Positions 7,881 to 24,000 are shown, counted from the stretch's first letter. The stretch is DNA of 24,000 nt from Bacteroidales bacterium (GCA_013376985.1 JACABB010000021.1:69327-93326), one strand, 5' to 3'. The notes: generated from the sequence alone by a model not told the origin. Numbers and translations: made by a program.

Positions 7881-8117
7881 ATGTATTTAGCTGTTAAAAA
7901 AGTAGAACCGATTAATAATTTTAAGCTTTTGCTTACTTTTGAAAATGGTGAAAAGCGAAAATTCGATATGAATCCATACTTAAATCAGGGTATATTCAAG
8001 GAACTTAGAAATGTAGATAAGTTTAATACTGTTCATTTAAGTTTTGATACTATTGAATGGGATAATGAAGCAGATTTTGACCCAGAAACTCTTTACGCTT
8101 TAAGTGAAAAGATATAA
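7881..8117 (+). CDS. DUF2442-like small protein
   Basis: 78 aa from ATG 7881. The pattern V..VEP...F.L.L.F.NGE.R.FD..PYL..GIF..L......F..V......IEW.N..DFDPE.LY resembles the DUF2442 family. The track's N-terminal extension to 7836 is unsupported. Confidence 0.6.
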   Translation: MYLAVKKVEPINNFKLLLTFENGEKRKFDMNPYLNQGIFKELRNVDKFNTVHLSFDTIEWDNEADFDPETLYALSEKI

Positions 8118-8179
8118 TTTGGGGTAAAATAAATTTCAAATAACATTTAACTTTAAATAATCATTTAAAAATATATCAG

Positions 8180-9310
8180 ATGAAATTTGTAGTTTCAAGT
8201 ACCGAACTGTTAAGTCATCTTAGCATTGTTAGTAGGGTAATTAGCAATAAAAACACCCTGCCTATCCTCGATAATTTTCTTTTCAAGCTCGAGGGGAATG
8301 AGCTTGAGATAACCGCATCGGATCTGGAAACAACCCTATCCACCCGGTTACATCTCGAAAATGTTATGGAAGATGGCTCAATCGCAATTCCTTTCCGTAT
8401 TCTTGTTGATACTCTTAAGGAATTCTCCGAGCAACCTCTAACTTTTGATATTAATCACACAAACCTTGCTGTTGTTGTTAACTCTGAGAATGGACAGTTT
8501 AATATTGTTGGACAACCTGCTGAAGACTTCCCAGTACGTGCTGAGCTTAAACCAGATCGTAAGGTTACAGTTAAAGTAGCAGCTGATCTTCTTTTAAGTG
8601 GAATATCAAAAACCATTTTTGCAACCGCCGATGATGAATTACGCCCTGTAATGAATGGTATTCTTATGGAATTAGCTACCGATAGCCTTTCTTTTGTAGC
8701 TTCCGATGCTCATAAGTTGGTTAGATACAGACGTAAAGATGTTCAATCCGAATCTGAGGCATCATTTATCCTTCCAAAAAAACCAGCAGCATTACTAAAG
8801 AATATTCTTGGAAAAGAATCAGGCGCAATTATCTTAGAATTTGATGATAAGAACGCTCTATTTACCATGTCGAACTACACATTAGTTTGCCGCTTGGTAG
8901 AAGGTTCGTATCCAAATTACAACTCAGTTATACCTGCTGATAACCCAAATAAACTTTCAATTGATAGGGTTGAGCTATACAACGGACTTCGTAGGGTTGC
9001 TGTTTATGCAAATCAGGCAAGTAACCTTATTAAGTTAAGCCTTGGTGGTAATCAGCTTACGGTTTCGGCACAGGATCTCGACTTCTCTATATCAGCTTAT
9101 GAAAGGCTTAAATGTCAATACGAAGGTGATGAGATGGAGATTGGATTTAAATCTGTTTTCCTAATTGAGATTTTAGCGAATATATCAACTTCTGATGTAG
9201 TTCTTTCTCTATCAGATCCTTCAAGAGCTGGCTTAATTTTCCCATTGGTTAATGAGAATGCAGATGAGGACATCTTGATGCTCTTAATGCCGATGATGAT
9301 TAGTGCATAA
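8180..9310 (+). CDS. dnaN: DNA polymerase III beta sliding clamp
   Basis: 376 aa starting MKFVVSSTELLSHLSIVSRVISNKNTLPILDNFLF and ending ...LLMPMMI. This is the canonical DnaN layout. Confidence 0.95.
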   Translation: MKFVVSSTELLSHLSIVSRVISNKNTLPILDNFLFKLEGNELEITASDLETTLSTRLHLENVMEDGSIAIPFRILVDTLKEFSEQPLTFDINHTNLAVVVNSENGQFNIVGQPAEDFPVRAELKPDRKVTVKVAADLLLSGISKTIFATADDELRPVMNGILMELATDSLSFVASDAHKLVRYRRKDVQSESEASFILPKKPAALLKNILGKESGAIILEFDDKNALFTMSNYTLVCRLVEGSYPNYNSVIPADNPNKLSIDRVELYNGLRRVAVYANQASNLIKLSLGGNQLTVSAQDLDFSISAYERLKCQYEGDEMEIGFKSVFLIEILANISTSDVVLSLSDPSRAGLIFPLVNENADEDILMLLMPMMISA

Positions 9311-9331
9311 TTTCTTTAACAAACATATTTT

Positions 9332-10523: not shown

Positions 10524-10724
10524 TTAGGTACTTTGAAACAAAGTTTTGCCACAAGTACATGAACCGCCTGTACAAGCACCACCAGTGCAAGCACCGCCTG
10601 TGCAATCACCACCCCAACACAAACCACCACTGCAATCACCACCTTTAATTTCACCCATTTCTTTAGCGTCCATTAACTGTGATAAGTTCAAGCTTTCACT
10701 TACAAAATCTTGAAGTTTTTTCAT
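10524..10724 (-). CDS. RiPP precursor A1: 29-aa GG leader plus 37-aa Cys/Gly-rich core (7 Cys, CxGGx pentads)
   Basis: MKKLQDFVSESLNLSQLMDAKEMGEIKGG | DCSGGLCWGGDCTGGACTGGACTGGSCTCGKTLFQST. It has a double-glycine leader, lies next to an rSAM/SPASM gene and shares a cluster with a C39-ABC exporter. Confidence 0.85.
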   Translation of the reverse strand: MKKLQDFVSESLNLSQLMDAKEMGEIKGGDCSGGLCWGGDCTGGACTGGACTGGSCTCGKTLFQST

Positions 10725-10750
10725 GATTAAAACATATTAAATTTATTTTT

Positions 10751-10810
10751 ACAGTAACCATTACCCATTACTGCTTGGATTTTCCTGAATCGAGGCACAG
10801 GAGAGCCATA
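10751..10810 (-). promoter_or_regulatory. conserved 5' leader element, copy 1 (upstream of precursor A1)
   Basis: About 60 nt, starting 26 nt upstream of the ATG and shared with three other precursors. It contains a CAGUAAU-GGGUAAUG-GUUACUG hairpin on the minus strand. Confidence 0.7.
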
Positions 10811-10852
10811 GAGTATGAAAATATTGATAGATATTAACTTCCTGAGAAAATA

Positions 10853-12376
10853 TTAAATTATTGGATTAATAAATGCTGGTGCTTTTTTGCAGCGAGGATC
10901 AGGGTAATCCCAATTTTCGTCGCCATATACTTTTAGCACATCTGCCCAACATTTGTTTGGATATTTATTGTAGCATTCATCTAGTAGTTCACAATTTTTG
11001 CAGGGGCTTTCATCCCTAAAATCATCTTTGGTAAAATTAACCCATTTCAGGGCTGCTGGGGAATTCCATATCTCTTCAATTGAATTTTCGAGGATGTTTC
11101 CGATAATAAACTTGTTTTTCCAGTACATCTGTTCGCAGATTGTCACATTTCCATCCGGTAGAATGTAAATATGCGAGCGATTTGCAGAGCAGGATGCTCC
11201 TGGAAAAGATTTACTTCCTTGTTCTGCAGTAAAAAATCCTCTATTAATGTAGGATTTATCGATCCCAATTTTAAGTGTATTTAGTTTATTCAACTCATCG
11301 AGATATATGAAAGCATCATCCCTACTTTGTTTGTCGAGTTTTATTTTTTCAAATTCGTTCGAAGTGTACAGCGAGCGATATGCAATGCGAACCTGCCACT
11401 CTTTAATTCTTTTCAAAGTTGACAAATAGTTGTACATCTCGCTTAGTTCTTCTTTGCCAGAATTTAAATTTGTTAGTACGCTGATTACATGGTAGGGTAG
11501 TTCATATTTATCCATCAACTCCAAGGTGTGCTTCATTTTATCGATATAACTTTTTTGTACACCTAGTAGTTGGTTTATTTTTTCCTTTGTTATTAAGTCG
11601 AAGGATATTTGGAAAGTTAAATTTGGGAATTGCTTCAATTTTTTAATATCATTTTCATTGATTGGAATTTTTGTGGATATTAAATTTCTATCGTAACCAG
11701 AGTTACTTAATTCACATAACAACTCGTACCATCTATTGTATAGGAAAAATTCCCCTCCTCCAAGATTTATATTTTTAATTCTTAGTTTTTTAGATTCACT
11801 AATAATTTCTTTAATTCTACTAAAGGGAATTGAACATATAATGTTTTTTTCTCTATCTGCATAACAATATAAACAGTTTGTAACGCATTGATTAGTTAAC
11901 ATAACTGTAATTGAAGAAGGGCAGTGGAATAATCTTTGTGTTTCAAAATCAAGTTCTTGAAAAACGAAATCTTCTGGCTTGTATTCATAATTAATTTTTA
12001 ATTTTTCGGAGTATTCTATTATTATTTTTTTCGGAAAACTAAAAACTACCCCATCATATTCAGTATGGATTATCTCCTCATTTTCAATATAAGGACTTAT
12101 AATCTTTTCTGCTTCAAGTTTACTTAGATCAAGAAATTCACTCAAATTTTCTAAAGCCTGCTCTAGGGTTGTGGGAGTGGAGAAAAAAGAAAGGAGCATT
12201 GCTTGAATAGGGTGGATTATAGAAAACCACCCTTTACTTGATGTTTCACATTGATTTATACTATTATATGTAATTAACGTTCGTTTAATATCATTTTTAT
12301 AATTATAATCTGGATTTAAAACATATTTTTTACCCATATAATTTCTGAAATTATTTTGTGAATAAGATCCTCGCAT
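10853..12376 (-). CDS. radical SAM / SPASM-domain peptide maturase, paralog 1
   Basis: CX3CX2C cluster in TNQCVTNCLYCYAD and GGGE SAM-binding motif (NLGGGEFFLY). A C-terminal Cys-rich SPASM-like region reads GASCSANR...ICEQ...CKNCELLDECYNKYPNKCW...DPRCKK. An N-terminal extension of about 150 aa is compatible with a peptide-recognition (RRE/PqqD-like) domain. An alternative start lies at 12337 (MGKKYVLNPDY). Confidence 0.9.
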   Translation of the reverse strand: MRGSYSQNNFRNYMGKKYVLNPDYNYKNDIKRTLITYNSINQCETSSKGWFSIIHPIQAMLLSFFSTPTTLEQALENLSEFLDLSKLEAEKIISPYIENEEIIHTEYDGVVFSFPKKIIIEYSEKLKINYEYKPEDFVFQELDFETQRLFHCPSSITVMLTNQCVTNCLYCYADREKNIICSIPFSRIKEIISESKKLRIKNINLGGGEFFLYNRWYELLCELSNSGYDRNLISTKIPINENDIKKLKQFPNLTFQISFDLITKEKINQLLGVQKSYIDKMKHTLELMDKYELPYHVISVLTNLNSGKEELSEMYNYLSTLKRIKEWQVRIAYRSLYTSNEFEKIKLDKQSRDDAFIYLDELNKLNTLKIGIDKSYINRGFFTAEQGSKSFPGASCSANRSHIYILPDGNVTICEQMYWKNKFIIGNILENSIEEIWNSPAALKWVNFTKDDFRDESPCKNCELLDECYNKYPNKCWADVLKVYGDENWDYPDPRCKKAPAFINPII

Positions 12377-12434
12377 TAGAAAGTCTTTGAGTTATTTAAA
12401 TTCCTAATCATTTAATAACTATTTTGAAATAAAA

Positions 12435-12467
12435 CTATTCCATACATTGAATTGTTGTATGGAATAG
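12435..12467 (-). terminator. stem-loop between precursor B and rSAM paralog 1 (terminator/attenuator)
   Basis: Perfect 12-bp stem ctattccataca / tgtatggaatag with a 9-nt loop, followed on the minus strand by UUUUAUUU. Confidence 0.65.
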
Positions 12468-12497
12468 CAATTTAGATGACAGTGAGATTGTTTGTTA

Positions 12498-12674
12498 TTA
12501 AATAATTCCACCTTCACATAAACCACCTGCACATATACCACCTTCGCAATAAACTCTGATTGTATCTTTACAATCCACAACTATTTTACCACCTGTGATT
12601 TCATCTAACTCTTTTGATTCCATTAAACTTGAAACATCAAGTTTTAATTTTGATAAATCTTTTAATTTTTTCAT
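12498..12674 (-). CDS. RiPP precursor B, absent from ORF track: 29-aa GG leader plus 29-aa core (4 Cys)
   Basis: Hand translation of the minus strand from ATG 12674 to TAA 12498 gives MKKLKDLSKLKLDVSSLMESKELDEITGG | KIVVDCKDTIRVYCEGGICAGGLCEGGII. At 58 aa it falls below the length of every ORF listed in the track. It is preceded by the conserved leader element. Confidence 0.78.
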   Translation of the reverse strand: MKKLKDLSKLKLDVSSLMESKELDEITGGKIVVDCKDTIRVYCEGGICAGGLCEGGII

Positions 12675-12699
12675 AAATAAGTTTTATTTAATTTGTTTT

Positions 12700-12757
12700 C
12701 AGTAACCTTTCCCCATTACTGTTTGGGGTTTCCTGATTTGAGGCGCAGGAGAGCCTT
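12700..12757 (-). promoter_or_regulatory. conserved 5' leader element, copy 2 (upstream of precursor B)
   Basis: Minus-strand sequence: UUAAGGCUCUCCUGCGCCUCAAAUCAGGAAACCCCAAACAGUAAUGGGGAAAGGUUACUG, 25 nt before the ATG. Confidence 0.7.
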
Positions 12758-12800
12758 AAAGTATATAAATATTGATAAATGTTCATTTTTTGACTAAATG

Positions 12801-14291
12801 CTAAATTATTGGATTAATAAATGCTGGTGCTTTTTTGCAGCGAGGATCAGGGTAATCCCAATTTTCGTCGCCATATACTTTTAGAACATCTGCCCAACAT
12901 TTATTTGGATATTTATTGTAGCATTCATCAAGTAGTTCGCAGTTTTTACAAGCACTTTCATCTCTGAAATCTTCTTTTTTCATATTTACCCATTTTAATG
13001 AGGCTGCTGAGTTCCATACTTCCTCGATTGAATTCTCAAGTATGTTACCAATGATAAACCTTTTTTTCCAGTACATTTGTTCGCAAATTGTTACATTCCC
13101 TTCGGGGAGAATATACATATGCGAACGATTTGCTGAGCATGATGAACCTAAAAATGATTTACTGCCATTCTCCGCTGTAAAATATCCTTTTTCAATAACA
13201 GATTTATCAATTGAAACTTTCAAGGTTTTAAGATTATTTAATTCCTCTAAATGCGCAAATACGTCTTGCCTGTCCTGTTCTTGAAGTTTTATACTTTCAA
13301 ATTCTGTAGAGCTATATAATGATCGATAGGCGATACGAGCCTGCCATTCTTTAATGTTTTTTAGCGTTGATAAATAGCTATGCATTTCGGTTAACTCTTC
13401 TTTGTTAGAGTTTAAGTTGGTGAGTACGCTTATTACATGATAAGAAAGACCATGCTTATCCATCAATTCCAAAGTGTGCTTCATCTTTTCAACATAACTC
13501 CCAGGTACATCCAATATCTTATTTATTTTTTGTTCTGAGAGAGAATCAAATGAGAATTGGTAGGTTAGATAAGGGAATTGTTTAAGTTTAATTATATCAT
13601 TTTCGCTTATGGGTACTTTTGTTGAAATAAAATTTTTATAAAATCCATACTTATACAACTCTGATAATAATTCGTACCAATTTTTATATAAAAAGAATTC
13701 ACCTCCACCAATCTGAATACTTTTAATTTTTAAATTTTTGGCTTCTTTAATTAATTCCTTTATTCGTTCGAACGGAATTGTGCATGTTACCTCTTGGCTT
13801 TTATCCGCATAGCAGTATATGCAATTTGTTACGCAGCGATTGGTTACCATAATGGTTATTACGGCGGGACTCTGGTTTAATCTTACCGAATCAAAATCCA
13901 ACTCTTTATAAACAAATTCATCAGGTTTGTAAGTATATAAAATCTTTAAATTTTCGTGATATTTAATAATGATTTGTTTTGGAAACTTGAAGTTATGTCC
14001 ATTATATTCGGTGAAAATAGCCTCTTTATTCTCTATAAAAGGTTTAATTATATTGAGAGTTTCCTCTTTACTTAAACTCAAAAATTCGCTCAAATCTTCA
14101 ACCGCTTTGTCAATACTAATAGGGTTAGAGAAAAATGAGAGAATCATTGCTTGAACAGGGTGAATAACGGATACCCACTCTGTATTGGTTTGCTCACATT
14201 GAGCATCTGAATTTGCAATGATTATACTTCTTTTTATGTCATTTTTGAAGTTATAATCTGGATTTAAAACATAAAGATCCTCGCTTATCAT
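12801..14291 (-). CDS. radical SAM / SPASM-domain peptide maturase, paralog 2
   Basis: Same architecture as paralog 1: TNRCVTNCIYCYAD, IGGGEFFLY and a SPASM-like Cys-rich C-terminus. The last 49 aa are identical to paralog 1. Confidence 0.9.
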   Translation of the reverse strand: MISEDLYVLNPDYNFKNDIKRSIIIANSDAQCEQTNTEWVSVIHPVQAMILSFFSNPISIDKAVEDLSEFLSLSKEETLNIIKPFIENKEAIFTEYNGHNFKFPKQIIIKYHENLKILYTYKPDEFVYKELDFDSVRLNQSPAVITIMVTNRCVTNCIYCYADKSQEVTCTIPFERIKELIKEAKNLKIKSIQIGGGEFFLYKNWYELLSELYKYGFYKNFISTKVPISENDIIKLKQFPYLTYQFSFDSLSEQKINKILDVPGSYVEKMKHTLELMDKHGLSYHVISVLTNLNSNKEELTEMHSYLSTLKNIKEWQARIAYRSLYSSTEFESIKLQEQDRQDVFAHLEELNNLKTLKVSIDKSVIEKGYFTAENGSKSFLGSSCSANRSHMYILPEGNVTICEQMYWKKRFIIGNILENSIEEVWNSAASLKWVNMKKEDFRDESACKNCELLDECYNKYPNKCWADVLKVYGDENWDYPDPRCKKAPAFINPII

Positions 14292-14370
14292 AAGTAGATT
14301 TATTAAAATAAATGTTGAAATAAAGAAGTTGATTATAAAAGTTTTAAAACAATTTGAAAAAAATAATAAA

Positions 14371-14402
14371 ACAATCCTATCCCTTGAAAGGAATAGGATT
14401 GT
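14371..14402 (-). terminator. stem-loop between precursor A2 and rSAM paralog 2 (terminator/attenuator)
   Basis: acaatcctat...ataggattgt forms a 10-bp stem, extendable with one bulge. On the minus strand it is followed by UUUAUUAUUUUUUU. Confidence 0.7.
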
Positions 14403-14425
14403 CTAATAACGATATCCAACAATGA

Positions 14426-14653
14426 TTAGTTGGCCATCTCTTCTTCGGCAAAAGTATTCTTGCCAAGAGTGCATTCGCCGCATGTGCATGAACCACATGT
14501 GCATGAACCACCTGTGCATGCACCACCTGTACAATCACCCCCCCAGCACAAACCACCACTACAATCACCACCTTTAATTTCGCTCATTTCTTTAGCGTTC
14601 ATTAACTGTGATAAGTTCAAGTCTTCGCTTACAAAATCTTGAAGTTTTTTCAT
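14426..14653 (-). CDS. RiPP precursor A2: 29-aa GG leader plus 46-aa Cys/Gly-rich core (9 Cys)
   Basis: MKKLQDFVSEDLNLSQLMNAKEMSEIKGG | DCSGGLCWGGDCTGGACTGGSCTCGSCTCGECTLGKNTFAEEEMAN. The leader is near-identical to A1. Confidence 0.85.
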   Translation of the reverse strand: MKKLQDFVSEDLNLSQLMNAKEMSEIKGGDCSGGLCWGGDCTGGACTGGSCTCGSCTCGECTLGKNTFAEEEMAN

Positions 14654-14678
14654 GGTTAAAACAGATTAATTTTTTTTT

Positions 14679-14738
14679 ACAGTAACCTTTCCCCATTACT
14701 GTTTGGAGTTTCCTGATTCGAGGCGCAGGAGAGCCTTA
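14679..14738 (-). promoter_or_regulatory. conserved 5' leader element, copy 3 (upstream of precursor A2)
   Basis: Minus-strand sequence: CUAAGGCUCUCCUGCGCCUCGAAUCAGGAAACUCCAAACAGUAAUGGGGAAAGGUUACUGU. Confidence 0.7.
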
Positions 14739-15343
14739 GATTATCCTGTAAAATATTATAGGGCTTTTGTTTTTTGCGCTAATAATTCTAATAATAGAAT
14801 TTAGAGCATGCAGTCCATGAAAATTTTTAGAGTTAGTTCAAGTATTAAATGTAAATGTTTTATATTCTGTTGCATTTTACCCTTTGATCATATTATTAAG
14901 AGTAAAACTAGTTGTGATTATTCAATAAACATCAATCATTCAAGGAACAGACAATGCCGTGATTTTTTAAACAAGTGTTTTTACACAGCAAGGCACTTAT
15001 ATTCACAGGTATTAAAAATAAAAATATAAAAAAATATTTGATAAATAAAAAAATAGTACAACTTAAATGGTTACTAAAATGTAAACGATATATACATTAT
15101 CGTGCATATGTCATTTACATTTTCTAAGTATAGGAAATTTCTATAATATTGATTTTTAAAAAATGTAGTTGTGATTTTTTATTTTCTTTAAAAGAGTTTA
15201 TTTAGCGGGTGTTAATCATATAAATTAGTTTTTTAAAATCAATAAATCTCCATTTTAAATTTTTATATACAGTTTAGATATTCATTGTTTAATCTGATAT
15301 TCAATGGATTTTTTATTCAAAAAAATATTTTAAGGACGATTAG

Positions 15344-15369
15344 CTACCCTGTCAATTTTGACAGGGTAG
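15344..15369 (-). terminator. perfect hairpin downstream of precursor C
   Basis: ctaccctgtcaa tt ttgacagggtag is a 12-bp palindrome. A T-run on the minus strand begins only about 15-20 nt later, so terminator function is uncertain. Confidence 0.45.
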
Positions 15370-15533
15370 AAAAACTAACTCAAAAAATTTTATTTTGTAT
15401 CCAAAGGAAAAATGAATTGAAGTCAAATAATGTTAAAGGACTTATTTCTTAAGAACTCCTATTTATGAATAAATAATTAAAACAAATATTAGAATTATTT
15501 AGATAAGGAATTTCCTTTGGGTATGAGGGATTA

Positions 15534-15743
15534 TTACCAAACAAAACGACCAAGACCATCTGTACACATTCCACCAACACAGCCCCAGAAACCATTATGA
15601 CAGTCATTAACATCTGTTGTTAATCCCTGATAGCATGAAAAAAATCCATTCTCACATCCACCTTGAATGTCTCTCATCTCCTTAGCATTCATTAATTGTG
15701 ATAAGTCCAAATTTTCACTTGTAAAATCTTTAAGTTTTTTCAT
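15534..15743 (-). CDS. RiPP precursor C: 29-aa GG leader plus 40-aa aromatic/Cys core (5 Cys)
   Basis: MKKLKDFTSENLDLSQLMNAKEMRDIQGG | CENGFFSCYQGLTTDVNDCHNGFWGCVGGMCTDGLGRFVW. It has the same leader family and the same upstream element but a different core. Confidence 0.8.
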   Translation of the reverse strand: MKKLKDFTSENLDLSQLMNAKEMRDIQGGCENGFFSCYQGLTTDVNDCHNGFWGCVGGMCTDGLGRFVW

Positions 15744-16472: not shown

Positions 16473-18572
16473 TTAAACCAATCGTGTTATCCCATTTTCA
16501 AGAGTGTAAATACGATCAAATTGCGTTAATAAATTGGAGCGGTGTGTAATTATAACAATCGCCATATTTTGTTTTTGTTGTTCTAATAGCTGCATAACAA
16601 AACCTTCTGTATGACGATCCATTGCTGCTGTGGGCTCATCTAATAGTAAGAGTTGAGGTTGCTTGTAAAGGGCACGTGCCAATGCAACTAATTGTTTCTG
16701 TCCACCTGAAATATTTACTCCTTCCTCACCAAGCAGAGTGTAATAGAATTGCGGAAAAGCTTTGAAGTACTTATCAAAACCAAAGTCCTCACAGAATTTA
16801 ATTATTTGTTTCGCTTCAGCTGCGGAGTCGGATAAGCAAATATTATCCAACAGAGTACCATTAAAAAGACTTATCTCCTGTGGAACAACGCTTGTCTTAC
16901 TCCTTAATTCGAAATTGTTTATATTATCAATATTGATATCGTTTATGGATATTGTTCCATTTTCCTGATGATACAATTTTTGAAGAATCTGTATTAATGT
17001 ACTTTTCCCACAACCACTTTCGCCTATAATGGCAATTGTTTCACCTTTTTTTACTTCAAAATTAACGTTGGTTAAAAGAGGTAAACTCCCTGGAAATCGA
17101 AAGGAAATTTGTGAAACTTTTAATTCATTGAAAGACAAATTAGCAGTATTGCTTTCTGTTTCGGGGTTATATTCGGGCGAGATGCTAACAAAATCATACA
17201 TTCTATCAAAGGCAATTTTTGCTCCCTGCACTTGTATGTTTAATAGTGCCAAACGACCAACTCCGGGTAAAAGACTTCCTGTCATTGAGAGTACGGCTAT
17301 CATTGCTCCAACAGTAAACGAACTGGTTATTACCAAATACGATGAGCTTGCTATAATTGCAGCAATTATAATTGTTGCGGCTGTATCGCCATACAAACTC
17401 AGATTGGTTTGGGTTTTACCTAATTGTTCTACCTTTTGTTGATAATGGCCGTAAATAGATTGATTTAATTTACTGAAAAAGGACTCTTTATTAAACGTTT
17501 TAATAGCGTATATCCCTTGAATTGTATTTATATAATTACTTTCGTTTTTTGCATAGGCAACCATCACCTCTCGTTGATCTTTAACAACTTTATGGTGAAA
17601 GCGATATACGATATAAAAAAAAATAGGAATACTAGTAAGTGATATGAATCCCAGAGTAATGGAATAGAGGAAGATAAATATAATTGATACCAGAACTACC
17701 ATTCCATCGATTAATACATTCCCAACCAAATAGCTTATTGTGTTTTGTATGCGTGAGGTATCGTTCATTCGCGCAATAAGCTCCCCTGTTTTACGATTAT
17801 CAAAAAAAGATTTTGGGAGAAATAGTAAACTACTATAGAAACTATTAATTATGCGAACGTTAAAGTTGCGACTCTGACCAACTAAAAATATTTGTCGTAT
17901 CCATGTTATTCCTCCTCGGAGTAGAAGTAGGATTGTTAAAATGGCCATCCCCGGTATAAGGCGATTTATAGTGTGATGCGGCAGAATATCATCAACTAGT
18001 TTTTGTGAGAAAAGTGCTGTGGTAGTTCCAAGAATAGCAATTAGAATGCCTATTCCAAGGCAAATGCTAAGTAAATTTATATCTTCTTTAACAAGATTAT
18101 ATATCCATCTCTTTTTTGCATTTTTAATGGTTTCGGATTTTATAAACTCTTTATTTGGCGTGAGTTGTAATAATGTTTTTGATACCCATATTTTATTCAA
18201 TTCTTCTTCATTTATGTACTTCATTCCTTCCGCTGGATCACCCACTAAAAAAAGGTTGTCGCAGAAATCGTAGCATACCATGTAGTGTTGCAGGCGGTTA
18301 TCAATAAAAACATGTATAATAAAAGGTTTTTTCAGATCCTTAATATGTGCCAAATCCGCTTGGCTTCCTACTGCATCAAACCCATTCTTTTGTGCTGCTT
18401 GGTACAGCCCCAAAAGAGTTGTTCCCTGTTTGGATGTGCCGCTTGTCTCTCTCAGATTCTCAAGAGGAACATGACCCCCGTAGTATTTTATTATTGAAGC
18501 AAGACATGCCACTCCGCAATCACTCTGATCTTGCTGTCTTACAAATGTTTTTGCTAATTTCTTAGAGATCAT
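16473..18572 (-). CDS. bacteriocin/RiPP ABC exporter with N-terminal C39 double-glycine peptidase domain
   Basis: N-terminal QQDQSDCGVACLASII carries the C39 catalytic Cys context. It also has a six-helix TMD, Walker A GESGCGKST, ABC signature ISGGQKQ and Walker B LLLLDEPT. Confidence 0.92.
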   Translation of the reverse strand: MISKKLAKTFVRQQDQSDCGVACLASIIKYYGGHVPLENLRETSGTSKQGTTLLGLYQAAQKNGFDAVGSQADLAHIKDLKKPFIIHVFIDNRLQHYMVCYDFCDNLFLVGDPAEGMKYINEEELNKIWVSKTLLQLTPNKEFIKSETIKNAKKRWIYNLVKEDINLLSICLGIGILIAILGTTTALFSQKLVDDILPHHTINRLIPGMAILTILLLLRGGITWIRQIFLVGQSRNFNVRIINSFYSSLLFLPKSFFDNRKTGELIARMNDTSRIQNTISYLVGNVLIDGMVVLVSIIFIFLYSITLGFISLTSIPIFFYIVYRFHHKVVKDQREVMVAYAKNESNYINTIQGIYAIKTFNKESFFSKLNQSIYGHYQQKVEQLGKTQTNLSLYGDTAATIIIAAIIASSSYLVITSSFTVGAMIAVLSMTGSLLPGVGRLALLNIQVQGAKIAFDRMYDFVSISPEYNPETESNTANLSFNELKVSQISFRFPGSLPLLTNVNFEVKKGETIAIIGESGCGKSTLIQILQKLYHQENGTISINDINIDNINNFELRSKTSVVPQEISLFNGTLLDNICLSDSAAEAKQIIKFCEDFGFDKYFKAFPQFYYTLLGEEGVNISGGQKQLVALARALYKQPQLLLLDEPTAAMDRHTEGFVMQLLEQQKQNMAIVIITHRSNLLTQFDRIYTLENGITRLV

Positions 18573-18581
18573 TTTAAATGA

Positions 18582-19088
18582 TTAAAAGTTTTGAATCGCA
18601 TCAATTTTTACTTCTCCTTTAAAATGTTTTGTTAGAAGATGTTTTTCATTGTATGCGAAAACGGATGGGATTGTCAATGTGCCGAACGTATTGTAGAAAT
18701 CATTATCATTTGTTTGGAGTACAGCTATGTTTGAGTAATTCTGAAGATTATTATTTTCTTTAAAAGCAATTATTTTATCAGTTGTTTCCGAAGAGGTTAG
18801 AATGATTTGATACGATGAAAATCGCTCTATGTTTTTGGTGATTTCCTTCACTTCGTATATGCAATGTTCACATTCGCTATTAAAATAGATTATGATTACT
18901 GGACTATTTTCGGCGATGTTTTTCTTTGAATAATCAACACCGTCCAAAGTTTTAAAATGGAAATTTGGTAACTTTTGAATGTTTGTAAGAGTCTGATTTT
19001 TTTTATCCAAACTTCTACAAATAAGGAAAATGAGAAGACCTATAACCAAAAGGCTTAAGCCCCCAAAGATTATTTTTATTTTACCCAT
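18582..19088 (-). CDS. membrane-anchored thioredoxin-fold thiol-disulfide oxidoreductase (TlpA/ResA-like)
   Basis: 168 aa with an N-terminal TM helix and a CEHC (CxxC) motif in the context IIIYFNSECEHCIYE. It overlaps the upstream gene by 8 nt, which suggests translational coupling. Confidence 0.75.
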   Translation of the reverse strand: MGKIKIIFGGLSLLVIGLLIFLICRSLDKKNQTLTNIQKLPNFHFKTLDGVDYSKKNIAENSPVIIIYFNSECEHCIYEVKEITKNIERFSSYQIILTSSETTDKIIAFKENNNLQNYSNIAVLQTNDNDFYNTFGTLTIPSVFAYNEKHLLTKHFKGEVKIDAIQNF

Positions 19089-19740
19089 TGCTTATAGTTA
19101 AAAACATGATGAGTAATAGCCATATAATTAACCCTACACCATAAGATGAGGCAACCATTTTAAGCATGGATGAGTAACCCTTATTTAAAACAGTTTTTAA
19201 TCCCAATGCCAACGCTAACCAGTAAAAAAACTCAAAAACATTAAATTGTTGCAATGGGTAAATAAGCCAACTTGCCACCTCCTTTATATTAAATAGGTTG
19301 ACAAGCGAAAGGGGATAGAAGTTGTTTATTTCCTGCAAAGTATGTGGGGGATACATTAAAAAGTATGCCATTTTAGATAAATCGGCAAGTAGAAATATTA
19401 CTTCGGCAATTACTGTAATTTTGAATAATTTGGCGAAACTAATATTATGCCCGAATACTAAAGCCCCTATATTGAGTGAAAAACTGACAAGGACCAATTT
19501 CAAAGCCACTAGTAGTGGCAAAATCACATAGTTAATCCACGAAAATTTTTCCCGAATCTCAAATATTCGTGAAATGCGTTCTGCGCTAAGTTGTTCCCCT
19601 AGAGCGTTATAATACAGATTATCCGTTATAACAAATACATTTAGTATAAAACTCGAAACGATATATAATAAACATACTATAAGGAAAAACCATTTTGCAT
19701 TTATCTTCTCAAAATGATTAGCAAGGGCTTGGGTTTTCAT
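19081..19740 (-). CDS. polytopic membrane protein, candidate immunity/accessory protein
   Basis: 219 aa with about 5 hydrophobic helices by eye. It sits between the bacteriocin-like peptide gene and the thioredoxin-like gene. No motif recognised. Confidence 0.55.
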   Translation of the reverse strand: MKTQALANHFEKINAKWFFLIVCLLYIVSSFILNVFVITDNLYYNALGEQLSAERISRIFEIREKFSWINYVILPLLVALKLVLVSFSLNIGALVFGHNISFAKLFKITVIAEVIFLLADLSKMAYFLMYPPHTLQEINNFYPLSLVNLFNIKEVASWLIYPLQQFNVFEFFYWLALALGLKTVLNKGYSSMLKMVASSYGVGLIIWLLLIMFLTISNG

Positions 19741-19816
19741 TCAATACTAAATAATTATAACGAATAAAATTATGATTTTGGAAAAATCACTTACGATTAG
19801 TTGATTTAAATAAATG

Positions 19817-19841
19817 CAGAGACGGAATTATTCCGCCTCTG
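19817..19841 (-). terminator. stem-loop immediately after the bacteriocin-like peptide gene
   Basis: Minus-strand CAGAGGCGGAA UAA UUCCGUCUCUG forms an 11-bp stem with one G-U pair, followed by CAUUUAUUU. Confidence 0.6.
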
Positions 19842-19853
19842 TATTATATTGTA

Positions 19854-20009
19854 TTAGCAAGCAGCAGCACCAACAGCAAAACCAATTAAAGCTGCAAATG
19901 GTCCCCAATGAGCACCTACAATAGTAGCAGCAGCTACACATGTCCAATAATCATCACCCTCAAGACCACCTTGAACTTTGCTCATTTCGTTAAAATCTAA
20001 AGTTTTCAT
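19854..20009 (-). CDS. class-II-bacteriocin-like peptide, absent from ORF track: 15-aa GG leader plus 36-aa hydrophobic core
   Basis: Hand translation of the minus strand from ATG 20009 to TAA 19854 gives MKTLDFNEMSKVQGG | LEGDDYWTCVAAATIVGAHWGPFAALIGFAVGAAAC. It has a short double-glycine leader, GxxxG-type motifs and two Cys residues. Confidence 0.65.
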   Translation of the reverse strand: MKTLDFNEMSKVQGGLEGDDYWTCVAAATIVGAHWGPFAALIGFAVGAAAC

Positions 20010-20157
20010 GTTAGTTTATTTTAGTTTGTTTCCCTACTCTATTTATAAAGGCTTTTCGGAATCCGCCTATTGTTTTTGCGCGCAAACAATATTTTGATTT
20101 AGATTATCCAATTTGCTTATTAGCATACTTACAAACAACTATTAATCCTAATACTTG

Positions 20158-20318
20158 TTAATTAACGTGAACTCGATCTAAGCATAACATCTTGATTGCT
20201 AGTATAGCATTAGATTGTTGCTTTGTCATGCTGAACGAAGTGAAGCATCTCGTCTTTAGATAACTAGATCCTTCGCTTCGCTCAGGATGACACCTTACAT
20301 TGAACTCACGTTAATTAA
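20158..20318. repeat. 161-bp MITE-like hairpin repeat, copy 2 (right flank of peptide island)
   Basis: Same length, same orientation and same ttaattaacg...cgttaattaa termini as 10357-10517. The internal gtcatgctgaacgaagtgaagcatc...cttcgcttcgctcaggatgac hairpin is present. Confidence 0.8.
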
Positions 20319-20485
20319 GAAATAGAATATCAAGTGTGAATTGTTAGCATGTTAAACATCAACAATATTAGGCCATTCAACTTTAATTGATTTTAACAGG
20401 TGTTCCATTTATTTGTACTATTATTCCATTGAATAGATATATTTGCATGTCAATTAACTACATAATCATTAAAATCTTTGAGAAT

Positions 20486-23434
20486 ATGAATCTGGTTAGG
20501 AAGAAACTACTAACAACTTTGTTATTAGCATTAATTGCTGTTGGCGCATTATCTCAGAATGCGATAGATTCACTTAAAAACGCTTTGGAAAAATCATCCA
20601 GCGATACTTCGAAAATTATTACAATGCTTAGTCTGGCTGAAAATTATTTCTATACAGATGAAAACAAGTCGCGAGAGTATTTTAATAACGCTAAAACATT
20701 GTTGGATAAGGTTCAATTTAAGAACGGAACTGCTTACTCTTATTATGTTAATGGTTATTTACTTAAAAATACACCTGCTGCGGCATTGGAGAGTTTTAAC
20801 AAATCTCTAATAATTTATACCGAGCTAAAGAATAATCCAGGAATAGCCAAAGCTAACTTAGCAATTGGTAGTACATATATTAATCAATCTAAATTGGATA
20901 AGGGAATGCCTTACTATTCTACTGCCTTGCAGATTTATCAATCATTAAATGATAGAAAAGGCATTGGAGTATGTTACTCTGCTTTAGGCAATATTTATGC
21001 TCATCAGGGAAAATTTAAAATGGCTCTTGATTATAACAAAAAAGCGTTGAAGTACCTTACATACCAAAGTTATGCATATTTTAATGAGCATGTAAGTATT
21101 GCAAATAATTATTCAGCTTTGGGTGAGGCGAAAATGGCTTTACTTTACTATGATAGTCTATTGAATACTTTAAAGAATAAGAATTATTTTGATATCCTTT
21201 CGAATGTTTATGCCAATTTAGGAGCTATTTACTCAGCATCTCAGAACTACAATAAAGCAAAGCAGTGCTATAAATCATCCATAGAATATGGGACAAAAGG
21301 AAAAAACGATTATTACTCCATTGTTGCATGTTTAACAATGTCGGATTTATATATTAACCTAAACCAGCCAGACTCAGTAATTAATTTACTTAAAAAGAAC
21401 TCGCCAACCATTATTCGGTATAAATCAAAAACTTTTTTGTCTTATTACTACCAATTTTTATCCTCAGCCTATGAAGTTAAAGGCGATATAAACTCTGCCC
21501 TTAAATATTATAAATCCTTTAAAAGCGCAGAAGATTCTTTGAATATCGAACAATCTAATCAACGTCTTTACGAGCTACAAACCTCATTGGATGTTGAGAA
21601 AAAGGATAAAGAGATTGACCTACTAAACAAGGAGAATCAATATAAATCACTTCAATTATCTAAACAGAGGATTATGATTTTACTTATTCTGCTGTCAACG
21701 GTATTATTCTTAGTTATGGCATTTGTTTTATACACTCGTTTCCGATTAAAGCACAAGCTGGTTGGTATGTTGGAAAATAAGAATAGAGAGATTGAGCAAC
21801 AGCAGCAGGAAATTATGGCAATGAACGATATGCTTGGAAAGCAGAATGAAAGTTTGCTGGAATTGGACGATATGAAATCCCGATTCTTTACCAACATATC
21901 ACATGAGTTCCGAACACCTTTATCGCTTATAATAGGACCTTTAACATCTATGTTGGAGGAATCCAACAACAAGGAAGCGCAAAATGAATTCCGACTCATG
22001 CTAAAACATGCAAATAGCCTATTAAATCTTATAAACCAATTGCTCGATTTATCTAAACTTCAAAAAGCAAGTCTTAATTTACAACTTTCGTATTACGATA
22101 TAAATACATTTTTAAATATACTTATTGATTCATTTTCTGGGCGTGCAAAAGATCTATCCATTGCACTTACCTATAATTCAAATCCTTTGCCTTTGTTTGT
22201 TTGGTTTGATAGAGATAAGGTGGGGACAATTGTATTTAATATCATTTCGAATGCATTAAAGCATACCGATAAAGGAGGTTTTGTAGAGGTTTCTTTGGCC
22301 AGAATAGGAGAGGATGATAATTATGTTGAAATTATGATTAGCGATAATGGAATAGGTATAGAATCGCATGAGCTAAAGAATATTTTTGAACCCTTTTATC
22401 AATCCAACGCAACAATAAATCGAAAGATTGAAGGCAGTGGTATTGGATTAGCTTTAGCTAAGGAGTTGGTTGAGCTACATGGAGGTGAAATTTCGGTGAA
22501 GAGCGAGGCAGGAAAAGGGGCTCAGTTTACAATAGTTTTAGCCGTGAATAAGCATCTTTTACCATTCGCAGAGATAATGTCCGATGAAGATCAGAAAGTT
22601 GATGAAATCGATAGATTTCCAAAACTTCATGAATTCGATTTAGGTGGCGAAGTCGAACCTAAAATAATAAAGGGAGAGACAACAATTCTTGTTGTTGAGG
22701 ATAATGATGATATGAGAGATTACATATCAAAATCGTTAGCGCAGGATTATCAAATTATAGTGGCAGTAAATGGTAGGGAAGGGTTTGATAAAGCAATGGA
22801 GGTATCGCCAGACCTTATAATTACGGATGTTATGATGCCCGAAATGAATGGGTATGAAATGACAAAGCTGATTAAAAACAATCAGCAAACAAGTCATATT
22901 CCTGTAATCATTCTTACTGCAAAAGCCTCCGAGGAGAGTAAGATTGAAGGACTTGAGGCCGCTGCTGATGATTATTTAGTTAAGCCCTTTAATAAAGCAG
23001 AGTTGCTGTTGAGGATTAGAAATACAATATCAAATCGACAAAAGCTAAGGGATAAGTTTCAGAAATCTATCACAGTAAACCCTTCGGAAGTAACAGCAAC
23101 ATCATTAGATGAACAGTTTTTAACAAAAGCACTTCAAATTATTGAAAATCATTTAGCAGATGCCGAGTTTTCCGTGAATGATTTTTGCGATGAAATTGGA
23201 ATGAGTAAGACCAACGTGTATAGAAAACTCAAGGCCTTAACCAATCAATCCTTTACAGAATTTATGCGTTGCATAAGGTTAAAACGGGCAGCATCATTGC
23301 TAGTAATGAAATCAGGCAACTTAACTGAAATTGCTTACGAAACAGGATTTTCCAACCTATCCTACTTCTCCAGAAGCTTTAAGGAACAGTTTGGGGTAAG
23401 TCCATCGGAGTATACAACAAAAGTAAAGAATTGA
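20486..23434 (+). CDS. hybrid two-component regulator: TPR sensor region, TM, histidine kinase, receiver, AraC-type HTH
   Basis: Signal/anchor MNLVRKKLLTTLLLALIAVGALS, TPR-like repeats and a TM helix (IMILLILLSTVLFLVMAFVLY). HisKA box FFTNISHEFRTPL, HATPase G-boxes (DNGIGI, GSGIGLA) and receiver (ILVVEDNDDM...DVMMPEMNG...KPF). The C-terminal AraC HTH reads GFSNLSYFSRSFKEQFGVSPSEY. The track start at 20387 is a TTG; ATG 20486 is preferred. Confidence 0.85.
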   Translation: MNLVRKKLLTTLLLALIAVGALSQNAIDSLKNALEKSSSDTSKIITMLSLAENYFYTDENKSREYFNNAKTLLDKVQFKNGTAYSYYVNGYLLKNTPAAALESFNKSLIIYTELKNNPGIAKANLAIGSTYINQSKLDKGMPYYSTALQIYQSLNDRKGIGVCYSALGNIYAHQGKFKMALDYNKKALKYLTYQSYAYFNEHVSIANNYSALGEAKMALLYYDSLLNTLKNKNYFDILSNVYANLGAIYSASQNYNKAKQCYKSSIEYGTKGKNDYYSIVACLTMSDLYINLNQPDSVINLLKKNSPTIIRYKSKTFLSYYYQFLSSAYEVKGDINSALKYYKSFKSAEDSLNIEQSNQRLYELQTSLDVEKKDKEIDLLNKENQYKSLQLSKQRIMILLILLSTVLFLVMAFVLYTRFRLKHKLVGMLENKNREIEQQQQEIMAMNDMLGKQNESLLELDDMKSRFFTNISHEFRTPLSLIIGPLTSMLEESNNKEAQNEFRLMLKHANSLLNLINQLLDLSKLQKASLNLQLSYYDINTFLNILIDSFSGRAKDLSIALTYNSNPLPLFVWFDRDKVGTIVFNIISNALKHTDKGGFVEVSLARIGEDDNYVEIMISDNGIGIESHELKNIFEPFYQSNATINRKIEGSGIGLALAKELVELHGGEISVKSEAGKGAQFTIVLAVNKHLLPFAEIMSDEDQKVDEIDRFPKLHEFDLGGEVEPKIIKGETTILVVEDNDDMRDYISKSLAQDYQIIVAVNGREGFDKAMEVSPDLIITDVMMPEMNGYEMTKLIKNNQQTSHIPVIILTAKASEESKIEGLEAAADDYLVKPFNKAELLLRIRNTISNRQKLRDKFQKSITVNPSEVTATSLDEQFLTKALQIIENHLADAEFSVNDFCDEIGMSKTNVYRKLKALTNQSFTEFMRCIRLKRAASLLVMKSGNLTEIAYETGFSNLSYFSRSFKEQFGVSPSEYTTKVKN

Positions 23435-23570
23435 ATAATGAACAAGGAATACCGATTTTAGATTTTAGAAGATTTCTGAAAACAGACTGATTACACAAAC
23501 ATCAAAAATCATAAACCGAGCGTTTTTTGCGAGCTCAGCGAAGCTAATCGTTGATCCTTGTTCTTAAATC

Positions 23571-23699
23571 TAACGCAAGTTTGATGTAAGTATAATATAT
23601 TGATCCTAAGTATAGCATTAGATTGTTGCTTGTCATGCTGAACGAAGTGAAGCATCTCGTCTTTAGATAACTAGATCCTTCGCTCCGCTCAGGATGACA
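23571..23699. repeat. partial third copy of the MITE-like hairpin repeat
   Basis: taacgcaagtttgatgtaagtataat...gtcatgctgaacgaagtgaagcatctcgtctttagataactagatccttcgctccgctcaggatgac. The right terminal inverted repeat is missing and is replaced by the 155-bp tandem array. Confidence 0.7.
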
Positions 23700-24000
23700 A
23701 TGGATTCATTATGGAATTCACCATTATTCAGGAAAGGGGTTGACGTTTCTAGAGCATACTGTTTCTTGTCATGCTGAACGGAGTGAAATCCGAAGGATTC
23801 GCTGAAAGCAACCATCTTGTCTTTAGAAGATCCTTCGCTTCGCTCAGGATGACAATGGATTCATTATGGAATTCACCATTATTCAGGAAAGGGGTTGACG
23901 TTTCTAGAGCATACTGTTTCTTGTCATGCTGAACGGAGTGAAATCCGAAGGATTCGCTGAAAGCAACCATCTTGTCTTTAGAAGATCCTTCGCTTCGCTC
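23700..24000. repeat. tandem repeat, 155-bp period, at least 1.9 units, truncated by window end
   Basis: The sequence from 23701 (tggattcattatggaattcacc...) recurs exactly from 23856. All 145 comparable bases are identical. Each unit contains a gtcatgctgaacggagtgaa...cttcgcttcgctcaggatgac hairpin. Confidence 0.85.

Follow-up and report, generated by a model that had tools for sequence, protein, structure and literature searches.

Organisation of the locus

The stretch of DNA considered here, a segment of 24,000 nt from the metagenome-assembled genome of a Bacteroidales bacterium (hereafter the window), carries on its minus strand a compact set of four genes, the first of which encodes a small peptide with a double-glycine (GG) leader. 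Translation of this open reading frame (ORF; 19854..20009) gives a precursor of 51 amino acids, and the gene is followed by a terminator-like hairpin (19817..19841), by the gene of a five-helix transmembrane (TM) protein of 219 aa (19081..19740), by that of a membrane-anchored thiol oxidoreductase of thioredoxin fold with a CEHC motif (168 aa, 18582..19088), and by that of a C39-peptidase ATP-binding cassette (ABC) exporter of 699 aa, that is, a peptidase-containing ABC transporter or PCAT (16473..18572). On the other side of the peptide gene lie a covariance-model match to the Rfam RNA motif DUF805b (RF02914; 20031..20069, minus strand) and an imperfect palindrome (20068..20091). The ORF, hairpin, membrane protein, CEHC protein and C39-ABC exporter listed in an initial annotation of the same DNA are all present where it had placed them.

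Judged from its sequence, the region 16473-20091 is very probably a complete production locus for a bacteriocin of the bacteroidetocin type (proposed class IIf). The peptide itself is of a rare new subtype, encoded within a kind of cassette that has already been described in Bacteroidota in the form of the bacteroidetocins. The only unusual feature of the cassette is that it adjoins a second, enzyme-modified peptide cluster which has no exporter of its own nearby (10524..15743, minus strand), and which comprises four precursors and two radical S-adenosylmethionine (rSAM)/SPASM maturases.

The precursor peptide

The gene at 20009..19854 translates into the leader MKTLDFNEMSKVQGG followed by the core LEGDDYWTCVAAATIVGAHWGPFAALIGFAVGAAAC. 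The leader consists of 15 aa (20009-19965) and ends in a double glycine, and the core of 36 aa (19964-19857) is hydrophobic, with a grand average of hydropathy of 1.0, and acidic, with three Asp/Glu residues and no Lys/Arg. It contains two cysteines, Cys9 and the C-terminal Cys36. The peptide is indeed the GG-leader precursor of bacteriocin type for which it had been taken in the initial annotation. Moreover, on a profile built from 58 leaders of the family, MKTLDFNEMSKVQGG scores 29.4, within the family's own range of 16-41. Its earlier description as a hidden and unlisted gene holds in part: the ORF is shorter than the usual length cut-off of ORF lists, but NCBI already annotates it, since a search of 5.8 billion proteins returned an identical 51-aa sequence, the hypothetical protein HXX16_12780, whose entry bears a precomputed Pfam Bacteriocin_IIc tag.

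The same search returned two relatives of the peptide, with 75% and 71% identity, and when a profile was run exhaustively against 1.84 billion cluster representatives, only three clusters were found, such that the subfamily is very rare. Within it the leader, a YWTC motif, several glycines and both cysteines are invariant. Comparison with a metagenomic relative (L081) indicates purifying selection on the ORF, with a ratio of nonsynonymous to synonymous substitution (dN/dS) of 0.12 and a proportion of nonsynonymous differences (pN) of 0.15, in a comparison in which the synonymous sites are near saturation (pS 0.64). It had been allowed at the outset that the small ORF might prove not to be conserved. 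It is conserved, at a dN/dS of 0.12 and with leader, YWTC motif and both cysteines kept, and because the subfamily holds together at 71-75% identity with so low a dN/dS, the ORF is regarded as confirmed, a real gene and not a product of chance.

With regard to wider families, the Pfam model Bacteriocin_IIc (PF10439) aligns with residues 1-50 at 22.4 bits (E 1.2e-4), and the window peptide differs from the peptides of that Pfam family in that this score does not reach the gathering threshold of 27.1. An AlphaFold2 model of the precursor places helices at residues 16-33 and 37-50, with a predicted local distance difference test (pLDDT) score of 74 overall, which is moderate, and of ~85 for the core. 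The model suggests, in other words, that the core would fold as a helix-turn-helix hairpin.

Related loci in Bacteroidota

Relatives of the 219-aa protein numbered 140 in a profile-guided scan that took one genome for each species, and the loci of 80 were fetched. The locus counts that follow rest on these 80 of the 140 relatives, and the peptide counts come from a strict GG-leader pattern search. In ~75 of the 80 loci the genes for a TM protein, a thioredoxin-fold protein and a C39-ABC exporter follow one another in this order on one strand, both partners being strongly similar to those of the window. The pattern search found 78 strict GG-leader peptides, distributed over 53 of the 80 loci, and 73 of these peptides are encoded upstream of the TM gene. 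The leader is of 15 aa in 62 of the 78, and 65 of the 78 have exactly two cysteines. Across all 78, the first cysteine stands at a median core position of 6 and the last at a median of 4 residues from the C-terminus, and the cores, of 20-68 aa with a median of 46.5, are rich in glycine (16.5%) and alanine (15.7%). The window peptide conforms to this pattern in every respect, with a core on the short side.

The nearest relative of the window locus is represented by two overlapping contigs from one sample (L081 and L082), in which three tandem paralogues of the window peptide are followed by the same three machinery genes. More generally, of the 51 loci with two-Cys peptides, 15 encode two or three different ones. 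Many loci have a tandem pair of different peptides upstream of the TM gene (L002, L008, L011, L012, L026, L027, L045, L048 and L063), in which one core starts with (V/I)(E/D)C and the other with GFWxGFC or DFxxGFC, an arrangement that resembles the two-peptide bacteriocins. In other loci (L003, L005, L007, L015, L032, L039, L043, L072 and L078) a small ABC-ATPase-like gene, of ~211-252 aa, lies directly upstream of the TM gene. This gene, which is absent from the window, could be part of an immunity or efflux system.

Relation to bacteroidetocins

The bacteroidetocin region described by Coyne et al. 2019 consists of four genes, for a five-TM protein, a small GG-leader peptide, a thiol oxidoreductase and a C39-ABC transporter, which suffice for toxin production in E. 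coli (PMC6671954). Studies of bacteroidetocin orthologues showed that cleavage occurs after the GG, that reduced and non-reduced forms of the peptide migrate differently, and that all four genes are required (PMC6671954). The family was defined by a leader of 15-16 aa, at least two cysteines, a length of 35-50 aa, and the proximity of a TM protein, a PCAT and, usually, a thiol oxidoreductase (PMC6671954), with the mature size later given as 42-53 aa by Matano et al. 2021 (PMC8546649). Its known members are Bd-A to Bd-D together with 15 further predicted peptides, for which class IIf has been proposed (PMC6671954, PMC8546649).

The window locus has each of these components. The leader is of 15 aa and ends in GG; the core has two cysteines and, at 36 aa, is close to the 2019 minimum and too short for the 2021 range; the CEHC thioredoxin-fold protein supplies the oxidoreductase and the 699-aa exporter the C39-ABC component. 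The five-TM component is supplied by the 219-aa protein, as compared with two of the surveyed loci that are included in the list of Coyne et al. 2019, namely those of Tenacibaculum gallaicum DSM 18841 (L027) and HGW-Bacteroidetes-13 (L080). With the TM genes of both, the 219-aa protein shares 35% identity (tblastn E 2e-38 for L027, 8e-33 for L080), and the supplementary matrix of the same study gives these two TM proteins 42% and 36.6% similarity, respectively, to that of bacteroidetocin A (PMC6671954). The likeness to bacteroidetocin loci had initially been put forward tentatively; on account of this TM homology to Coyne-listed loci and of the shared gene order in ~75 of 80 loci, it is now verified. 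Homology searches with the peptide and the 219-aa protein, of the kind suggested at that stage, led to three rare peptide clusters, to a TM family in Bacteroidota, and on to loci of bacteroidetocin type.

The window locus shares with the bacteroidetocins, then, a 15-aa GG leader, a small core with at least two cysteines, three ancillary genes (five-TM protein, thiol oxidoreductase and C39-ABC), and a confinement to Bacteroidota. It differs in gene order, which for Bd-A and Bd-B is TM protein, peptide, oxidoreductase, ABC, but in the window and most of the 80 loci is peptide, TM protein, oxidoreductase, ABC.

A number of points weigh against the assignment. The core is of 36 aa, acidic, Gly/Ala-rich and equipped with two cysteines, whereas Bd-A and Bd-B are of 42 aa, basic, and have four (PMC6671954, PMC8546649). 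Bd-A sensitivity depends on an Asp in loop 3 of BamA (PMC6671954, PMC8546649); because the window core is acidic and hydrophobic where Bd-A and Bd-B are basic, its target may be a different one, and BamA is not to be assumed. The similarity of the window peptide to the Coyne-listed peptide of L027 (phmmer E 2.4e-5, with 78 sequences searched) sits mainly in the leader, and the sub-threshold match to Bacteriocin_IIc suggests a resemblance and nothing closer. Furthermore, the 219-aa protein is without a match among solved structures, its role being a guess, and the activity, processing and disulfide of the peptide are predictions.

In terms of its peptide, the locus also recalls the class II microcins, such as microcin V, and the Gram-positive Bacteriocin_IIc peptides, with which it shares a 15-aa GG leader, export by a PCAT, and a hydrophobic core that is rich in Gly/Ala and contains small-xxx-small motifs. 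In microcin V, too, one disulfide lies near the C-terminus. Among 52 peptides of the surveyed loci, 12 match Bacteriocin_IIc and three match MccV (E <= 0.01), and on these grounds a membrane-active mode is possible for the window peptide. Unlike the class II microcins, however, the window locus has no membrane-fusion protein, TolC partner or immunity gene, and it has instead a dedicated oxidoreductase and a Yip1-like protein.

Hairpin, oxidoreductase and exporter

Between the peptide gene and the machinery genes, the hairpin (19841..19817) consists of an 11-bp GC-rich stem, with six GC pairs, and a T-rich tail. The nearest relative has a different hairpin, of 12 bp, at the same position after its peptide genes. 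The hairpin is probably a partial terminator which would, by attenuating transcription of the machinery genes, set the ratio of peptide to machinery.

The oxidoreductase gene (19088..18582) overlaps the TM gene by 8 nt. Its product has an AhpC-TSA/thioredoxin fold (1.7e-8), a single N-terminal TM segment and the CEHC motif, and is homologous to the products of the same-position genes in other loci (E 1e-15 to 1e-32). Across the 80 bacteroidetocin-type loci the redox motif takes the form C[DE][FHY]C. A His or aromatic residue before the second cysteine, as in CPHC of DsbA and CGHC of protein disulfide isomerase, is typical of oxidising thioredoxin folds. By analogy, the CEHC protein would oxidise Cys9 and Cys36 of the peptide to a disulfide.

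The exporter contains the domains Peptidase_C39 (8.8e-35), ABC_membrane and ABC_tran, and its C39 motif is intact, with the cysteine within QSDCG. Its affinities are clear, in that comparison with the ABC genes of the 80 bacteroidetocin-type loci gives phmmer E values of 1e-177 to 1e-237, as against only about 210-250 bits with rSAM-linked ABCs. The exporter that lies beside the rSAM cassettes is, therefore, of bacteroidetocin type, unlike the type linked to rSAM genes.

Upstream region

The palindrome upstream of the peptide gene was first proposed as a candidate operator. It is present, at 20068-20091, in the form TATTGTTT-N8-AAACAATA, with perfect 8-nt arms at 20068-20075 and 20084-20091 and an 8-nt spacer with a GCGCGC centre. 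The operator role fares less well. The palindrome is one of nine inverted repeats of at least 7 nt in 651 AT-rich bases, and on this account is statistically unremarkable by itself, a repeat at the level of chance; treated as RNA, it shows no folding advantage over shuffled sequence (z -0.5). It is kept before the first of the three peptide genes of L081, where the centre has changed from GCGCGC to ACGCGT with its symmetry preserved, which amounts to one compensating event in a comparison of two sequences. The palindrome is possibly an operator or a promoter-proximal element, but the adjoining DUF805b element, which had been overlooked, is the better-supported cis feature.

DUF805b (RF02914, clan CL00115) is a candidate cis-regulatory motif from the survey of Weinberg et al. 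2017. The window element, directly 3' of the palindrome and ending 21 nt before the peptide ATG, matches the model over its full length (20069..20031), and its 45.1 bits (E 2.2e-10) exceed the gathering score of 35.6. It comprises a short hairpin, the loop of which reads CCGAAAA, and further downstream a AGAGUAGG box, and in the L081 copies the stem changes from GGC:GCC to GGU:ACC. GG-leader peptide genes are preceded, at a distance of 13-22 nt, by matches at gathering level in L004, L019, L025, L028, L057 and L081 (three copies). Unlike a bacteriocin-specific switch, however, DUF805b precedes genes for varied secreted proteins: it is found, likewise within 13-22 nt, upstream of rSAM precursors in L083, L084 and L086, and it also stands before at least two other genes of secreted proteins, one lipoprotein-like (L019 3692) and one for an Ig-domain protein (L084 15852). 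This distribution suggests that DUF805b is a general 5' element for secreted products in Bacteroidota and is not specific to bacteriocins.

The possibility that DUF805b represents a sigma-54 promoter (GG-N10-GC) was considered and rejected, as the L081 copies do not conserve the 'GC' and the downstream box lies at a distance that varies by 4 nt. A scan for sigma-70 promoters, which is uninformative for Bacteroidota, gave 22 sites against 24.8 expected.

The adjacent radical-SAM cassettes and the question of a shared exporter

Beyond the exporter gene, the same minus strand encodes four Cys-rich precursors, each with a GG leader of 29 aa (15743-15534, 14653-14426, 12674-12498 and 10724-10524) and two rSAM/SPASM maturases (14291-12801 and 12376-10853; Radical_SAM 3e-18 and 2.9e-12, SPASM 1e-13 and 2.9e-15). 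This juxtaposition of maturase domains with GG-leader, Cys-rich precursors is that of an rSAM/SPASM maturase system, and the cassettes are akin to the rSAM/SPASM clusters of Bacteroidales (Pfam Bacteroid_pep; PMC10352776) that make ribosomally synthesised and post-translationally modified peptides (RiPPs) and comprise GG-motif precursors and PCATs. Neither maturase reached the cut-off of any curated NCBIfam equivalog. The four genes of bacteroidetocin type differ from such clusters in that their sole modifying enzyme is the oxidoreductase.

Each of the four precursors is preceded by a 68-nt element (15833-15766, 14742-14675, 12762-12695 and 10814-10747, minus strand), of ~92% identity between copies, which ends ~20 nt before the ATG. 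Its potential pairings are the hairpins UCCUG/CAGGA and CAGUAAY/RUUACUG, and an upstream CCCC with a GGGG loop. A covariance model of the element found matches in the window only and none in 83 related rSAM loci; the element shows no covariation and no Rfam match. In L083, a close relative of these cassettes, the DUF805b element and precursor are immediately preceded by genes for a sigma-54-dependent response regulator and a histidine kinase (7956-9323).

As to how these peptides leave the cell, the bacteroidetocin-type C39-ABC may cleave and export the four rSAM-modified peptides in addition to the 51-aa precursor, a proposal whose chances we put a little short of even. The extra 14 N-terminal residues of the longer leaders would, on this proposal, serve the maturases, and the last 9-15 residues the exporter. 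Exporter statements here cover the 24-kb window of the genome, a limit which itself tells against the proposal; in the window there is no second exporter, and the cassettes run up against housekeeping genes without one. Both leader classes have in common the cleavage-proximal motif (N/K)E(M/L)xx(I/V)xGG, which reads NEMSKVQGG in the 51-aa peptide and KEMSEIKGG, KEMRDIQGG, KEMGEIKGG and KELDEITGG in the four precursors. On the profile of the 58 bacteroidetocin-type leaders, the final 15 residues of the four longer leaders outscore all but 1-1.4% of 850 GG-ending control 15-mers, but they do not match the distal half of the profile, scoring -4 to -12 where true leaders score 16-41. Exporters of bacteroidetocin type are, moreover, already accompanied by two or three peptides in the 15 of 51 loci noted above.

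Wider comparison of the rSAM loci cuts both ways. Among the more distant rSAM relatives, 50 of 83 loci have their own ABC of ~733 aa, of a different subfamily, which is absent in the window. The closest relatives, at 69-71% identity (L083-L086), consist, however, of precursor and maturase pairs with no ABC within 10 kb, from which it follows that export in trans is normal for this subclade. Some published rSAM RiPP clusters of Bacteroidales likewise have no transporter (PMC10352776). Moreover, an rSAM gene occurs in none of the 80 bacteroidetocin-type loci (0/80) and a TM or thioredoxin gene in none of the 83 rSAM loci (0/83). As neither type of locus carries the genes of the other, their adjacency in the window is possibly a coincidence. 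A gap of 730 bp follows the ABC gene, and the 5' elements differ, with DUF805b before the 51-aa peptide and the 68-nt element before the four precursors. Weighed together, the similarities leave room for a tentative reading in which the window holds a natural hybrid, one C39-ABC serving both an unmodified, disulfide-stapled class II peptide and four rSAM RiPPs whose exporter was lost. Part and parcel of this, and equally tentative, is the notion that the longer leaders consist of a maturase-recognition segment placed ahead of a common export signal.

Role of the membrane protein

The AlphaFold2 model of the 219-aa protein shows five long helices, with a pLDDT of 92. The protein has no Pfam match at E <= 0.1, and comparison of the model with the PDB gave no fold match to a solved structure. 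It has 56 homologues at E <= 1e-3, and all of those with a named source are from Bacteroidota. Weak, sub-threshold similarity to Yip1 is found in nine of 20 members of the TM family (best E 3e-4), and a weak match to YknW_fam of NCBIfam was obtained with the 219-aa protein itself (E 7e-5). The Yip1/YknW likeness would fit a five-helix transporter partner, although it is only a hint. A DsbB-like role in re-oxidation was ruled out, since the invariant columns of the family contain no conserved cysteine.

The initial annotation had labelled the 219-aa protein as an immunity protein for the peptide. Such a role would not be without precedent, as Gram-positive class II bacteriocin loci usually contain a small membrane immunity protein beside the structural gene, and YknW, to which the match is weak, belongs to a system by which B. 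subtilis is protected from the SDP toxin. The experiments on bacteroidetocins nevertheless make it very unlikely. In the bacteroidetocin B locus, deletion of the TM gene or of the oxidoreductase gene lowers toxin activity (PMC6671954). Conversely, neither protein protects sensitive Bacteroides when expressed there, a peptide-gene deletion mutant in which both are still made is killed, and the producers are themselves sensitive (PMC6671954). In the present loci, moreover, the TM gene overlaps the oxidoreductase gene and its linkage to the exporter is invariable. The label of immunity is, then, not supported, the orthologue being needed for toxin activity and not protective. For the window, the need for the TM and oxidoreductase proteins and the absence of immunity are both taken over from the published orthologous loci. 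Because of those results, the 219-aa protein is most likely, by analogy, an accessory to production or export.

The divergent sensor gene

On the plus strand, divergent from the peptide gene, lies the gene of a hybrid sensor of 1015 aa (20387-23434), with TPR repeats, a membrane segment, a histidine kinase, a receiver and an AraC-type helix-turn-helix domain. As a conserved regulator of such loci it was ruled out, since no homologue stands beside any of the 80 related loci (0/80), three of which gave matches to an isolated receiver or AraC domain only. That the peptide is a secreted inducer pheromone for this sensor, in place of a toxin, is very improbable, for, although the sensor gene adjoins the locus in divergent orientation and GG-leader inducer peptides control class II bacteriocin loci in Gram-positive bacteria, the sensor is not found beside the related loci and the 36-aa core, hydrophobic, Gly/Ala-rich and with two cysteines, resembles the toxin-type members of the family.

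The intergenic region between sensor and peptide also contains, at 20220-20300, copies of an inverted-arm repeat, GTCATCCTGAGCGAAGCGAAGGATC ... CTTCACTTCGTTCAGCATGAC, further copies of which lie near the end of the window (23509-23970) and there create spurious small ORFs (MVAFSESFGFHSVQHDKKQ...). These look like intergenic repeats of the repetitive extragenic palindrome or miniature inverted-repeat transposable element type.

Proposed mechanism and significance

The bacteroidetocin-type reading of the locus suggests the following course of events. The 51-aa precursor would be transcribed behind the DUF805b 5' element, the hairpin after its stop codon probably passing a part of transcription on into the three machinery genes. 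The C39-ABC would then recognise the 15-aa leader, cut after the GG, and move the 36-aa core across the inner membrane. In the periplasm, the CEHC protein would oxidise Cys9 and Cys36, giving a helix-turn-helix that is stapled near both of its ends. The five-helix, Yip1-like protein would be an obligatory accessory to production, most likely as a partner of the exporter or of the oxidoreductase. The likeliest effect of the released peptide is the killing of related Bacteroidota.

Few peptide toxins with activity against Bacteroidota are known. The bacteroidetocins belong to these few, and are under consideration for use in microbiome editing. The literature so far lists 19 of them, of which four were tested, and to these the present locus adds a rare, short, acidic, two-Cys subtype. 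Moreover, the three-gene machinery with its 15-aa-leader, two-Cys peptides is widespread in the phylum, as seen in 140 species genomes. The presence of DUF805b before many of the peptide genes provides, in addition, a concrete gene context for an orphan RNA motif. If the exporter is indeed shared with the neighbouring cassettes, then the window would offer a simple system for how one C39 domain handles leaders of different lengths. Indeed, if the window holds a hybrid, it would document the convergence of class I and class II bacteriocins on a single PCAT in a Gram-negative phylum.

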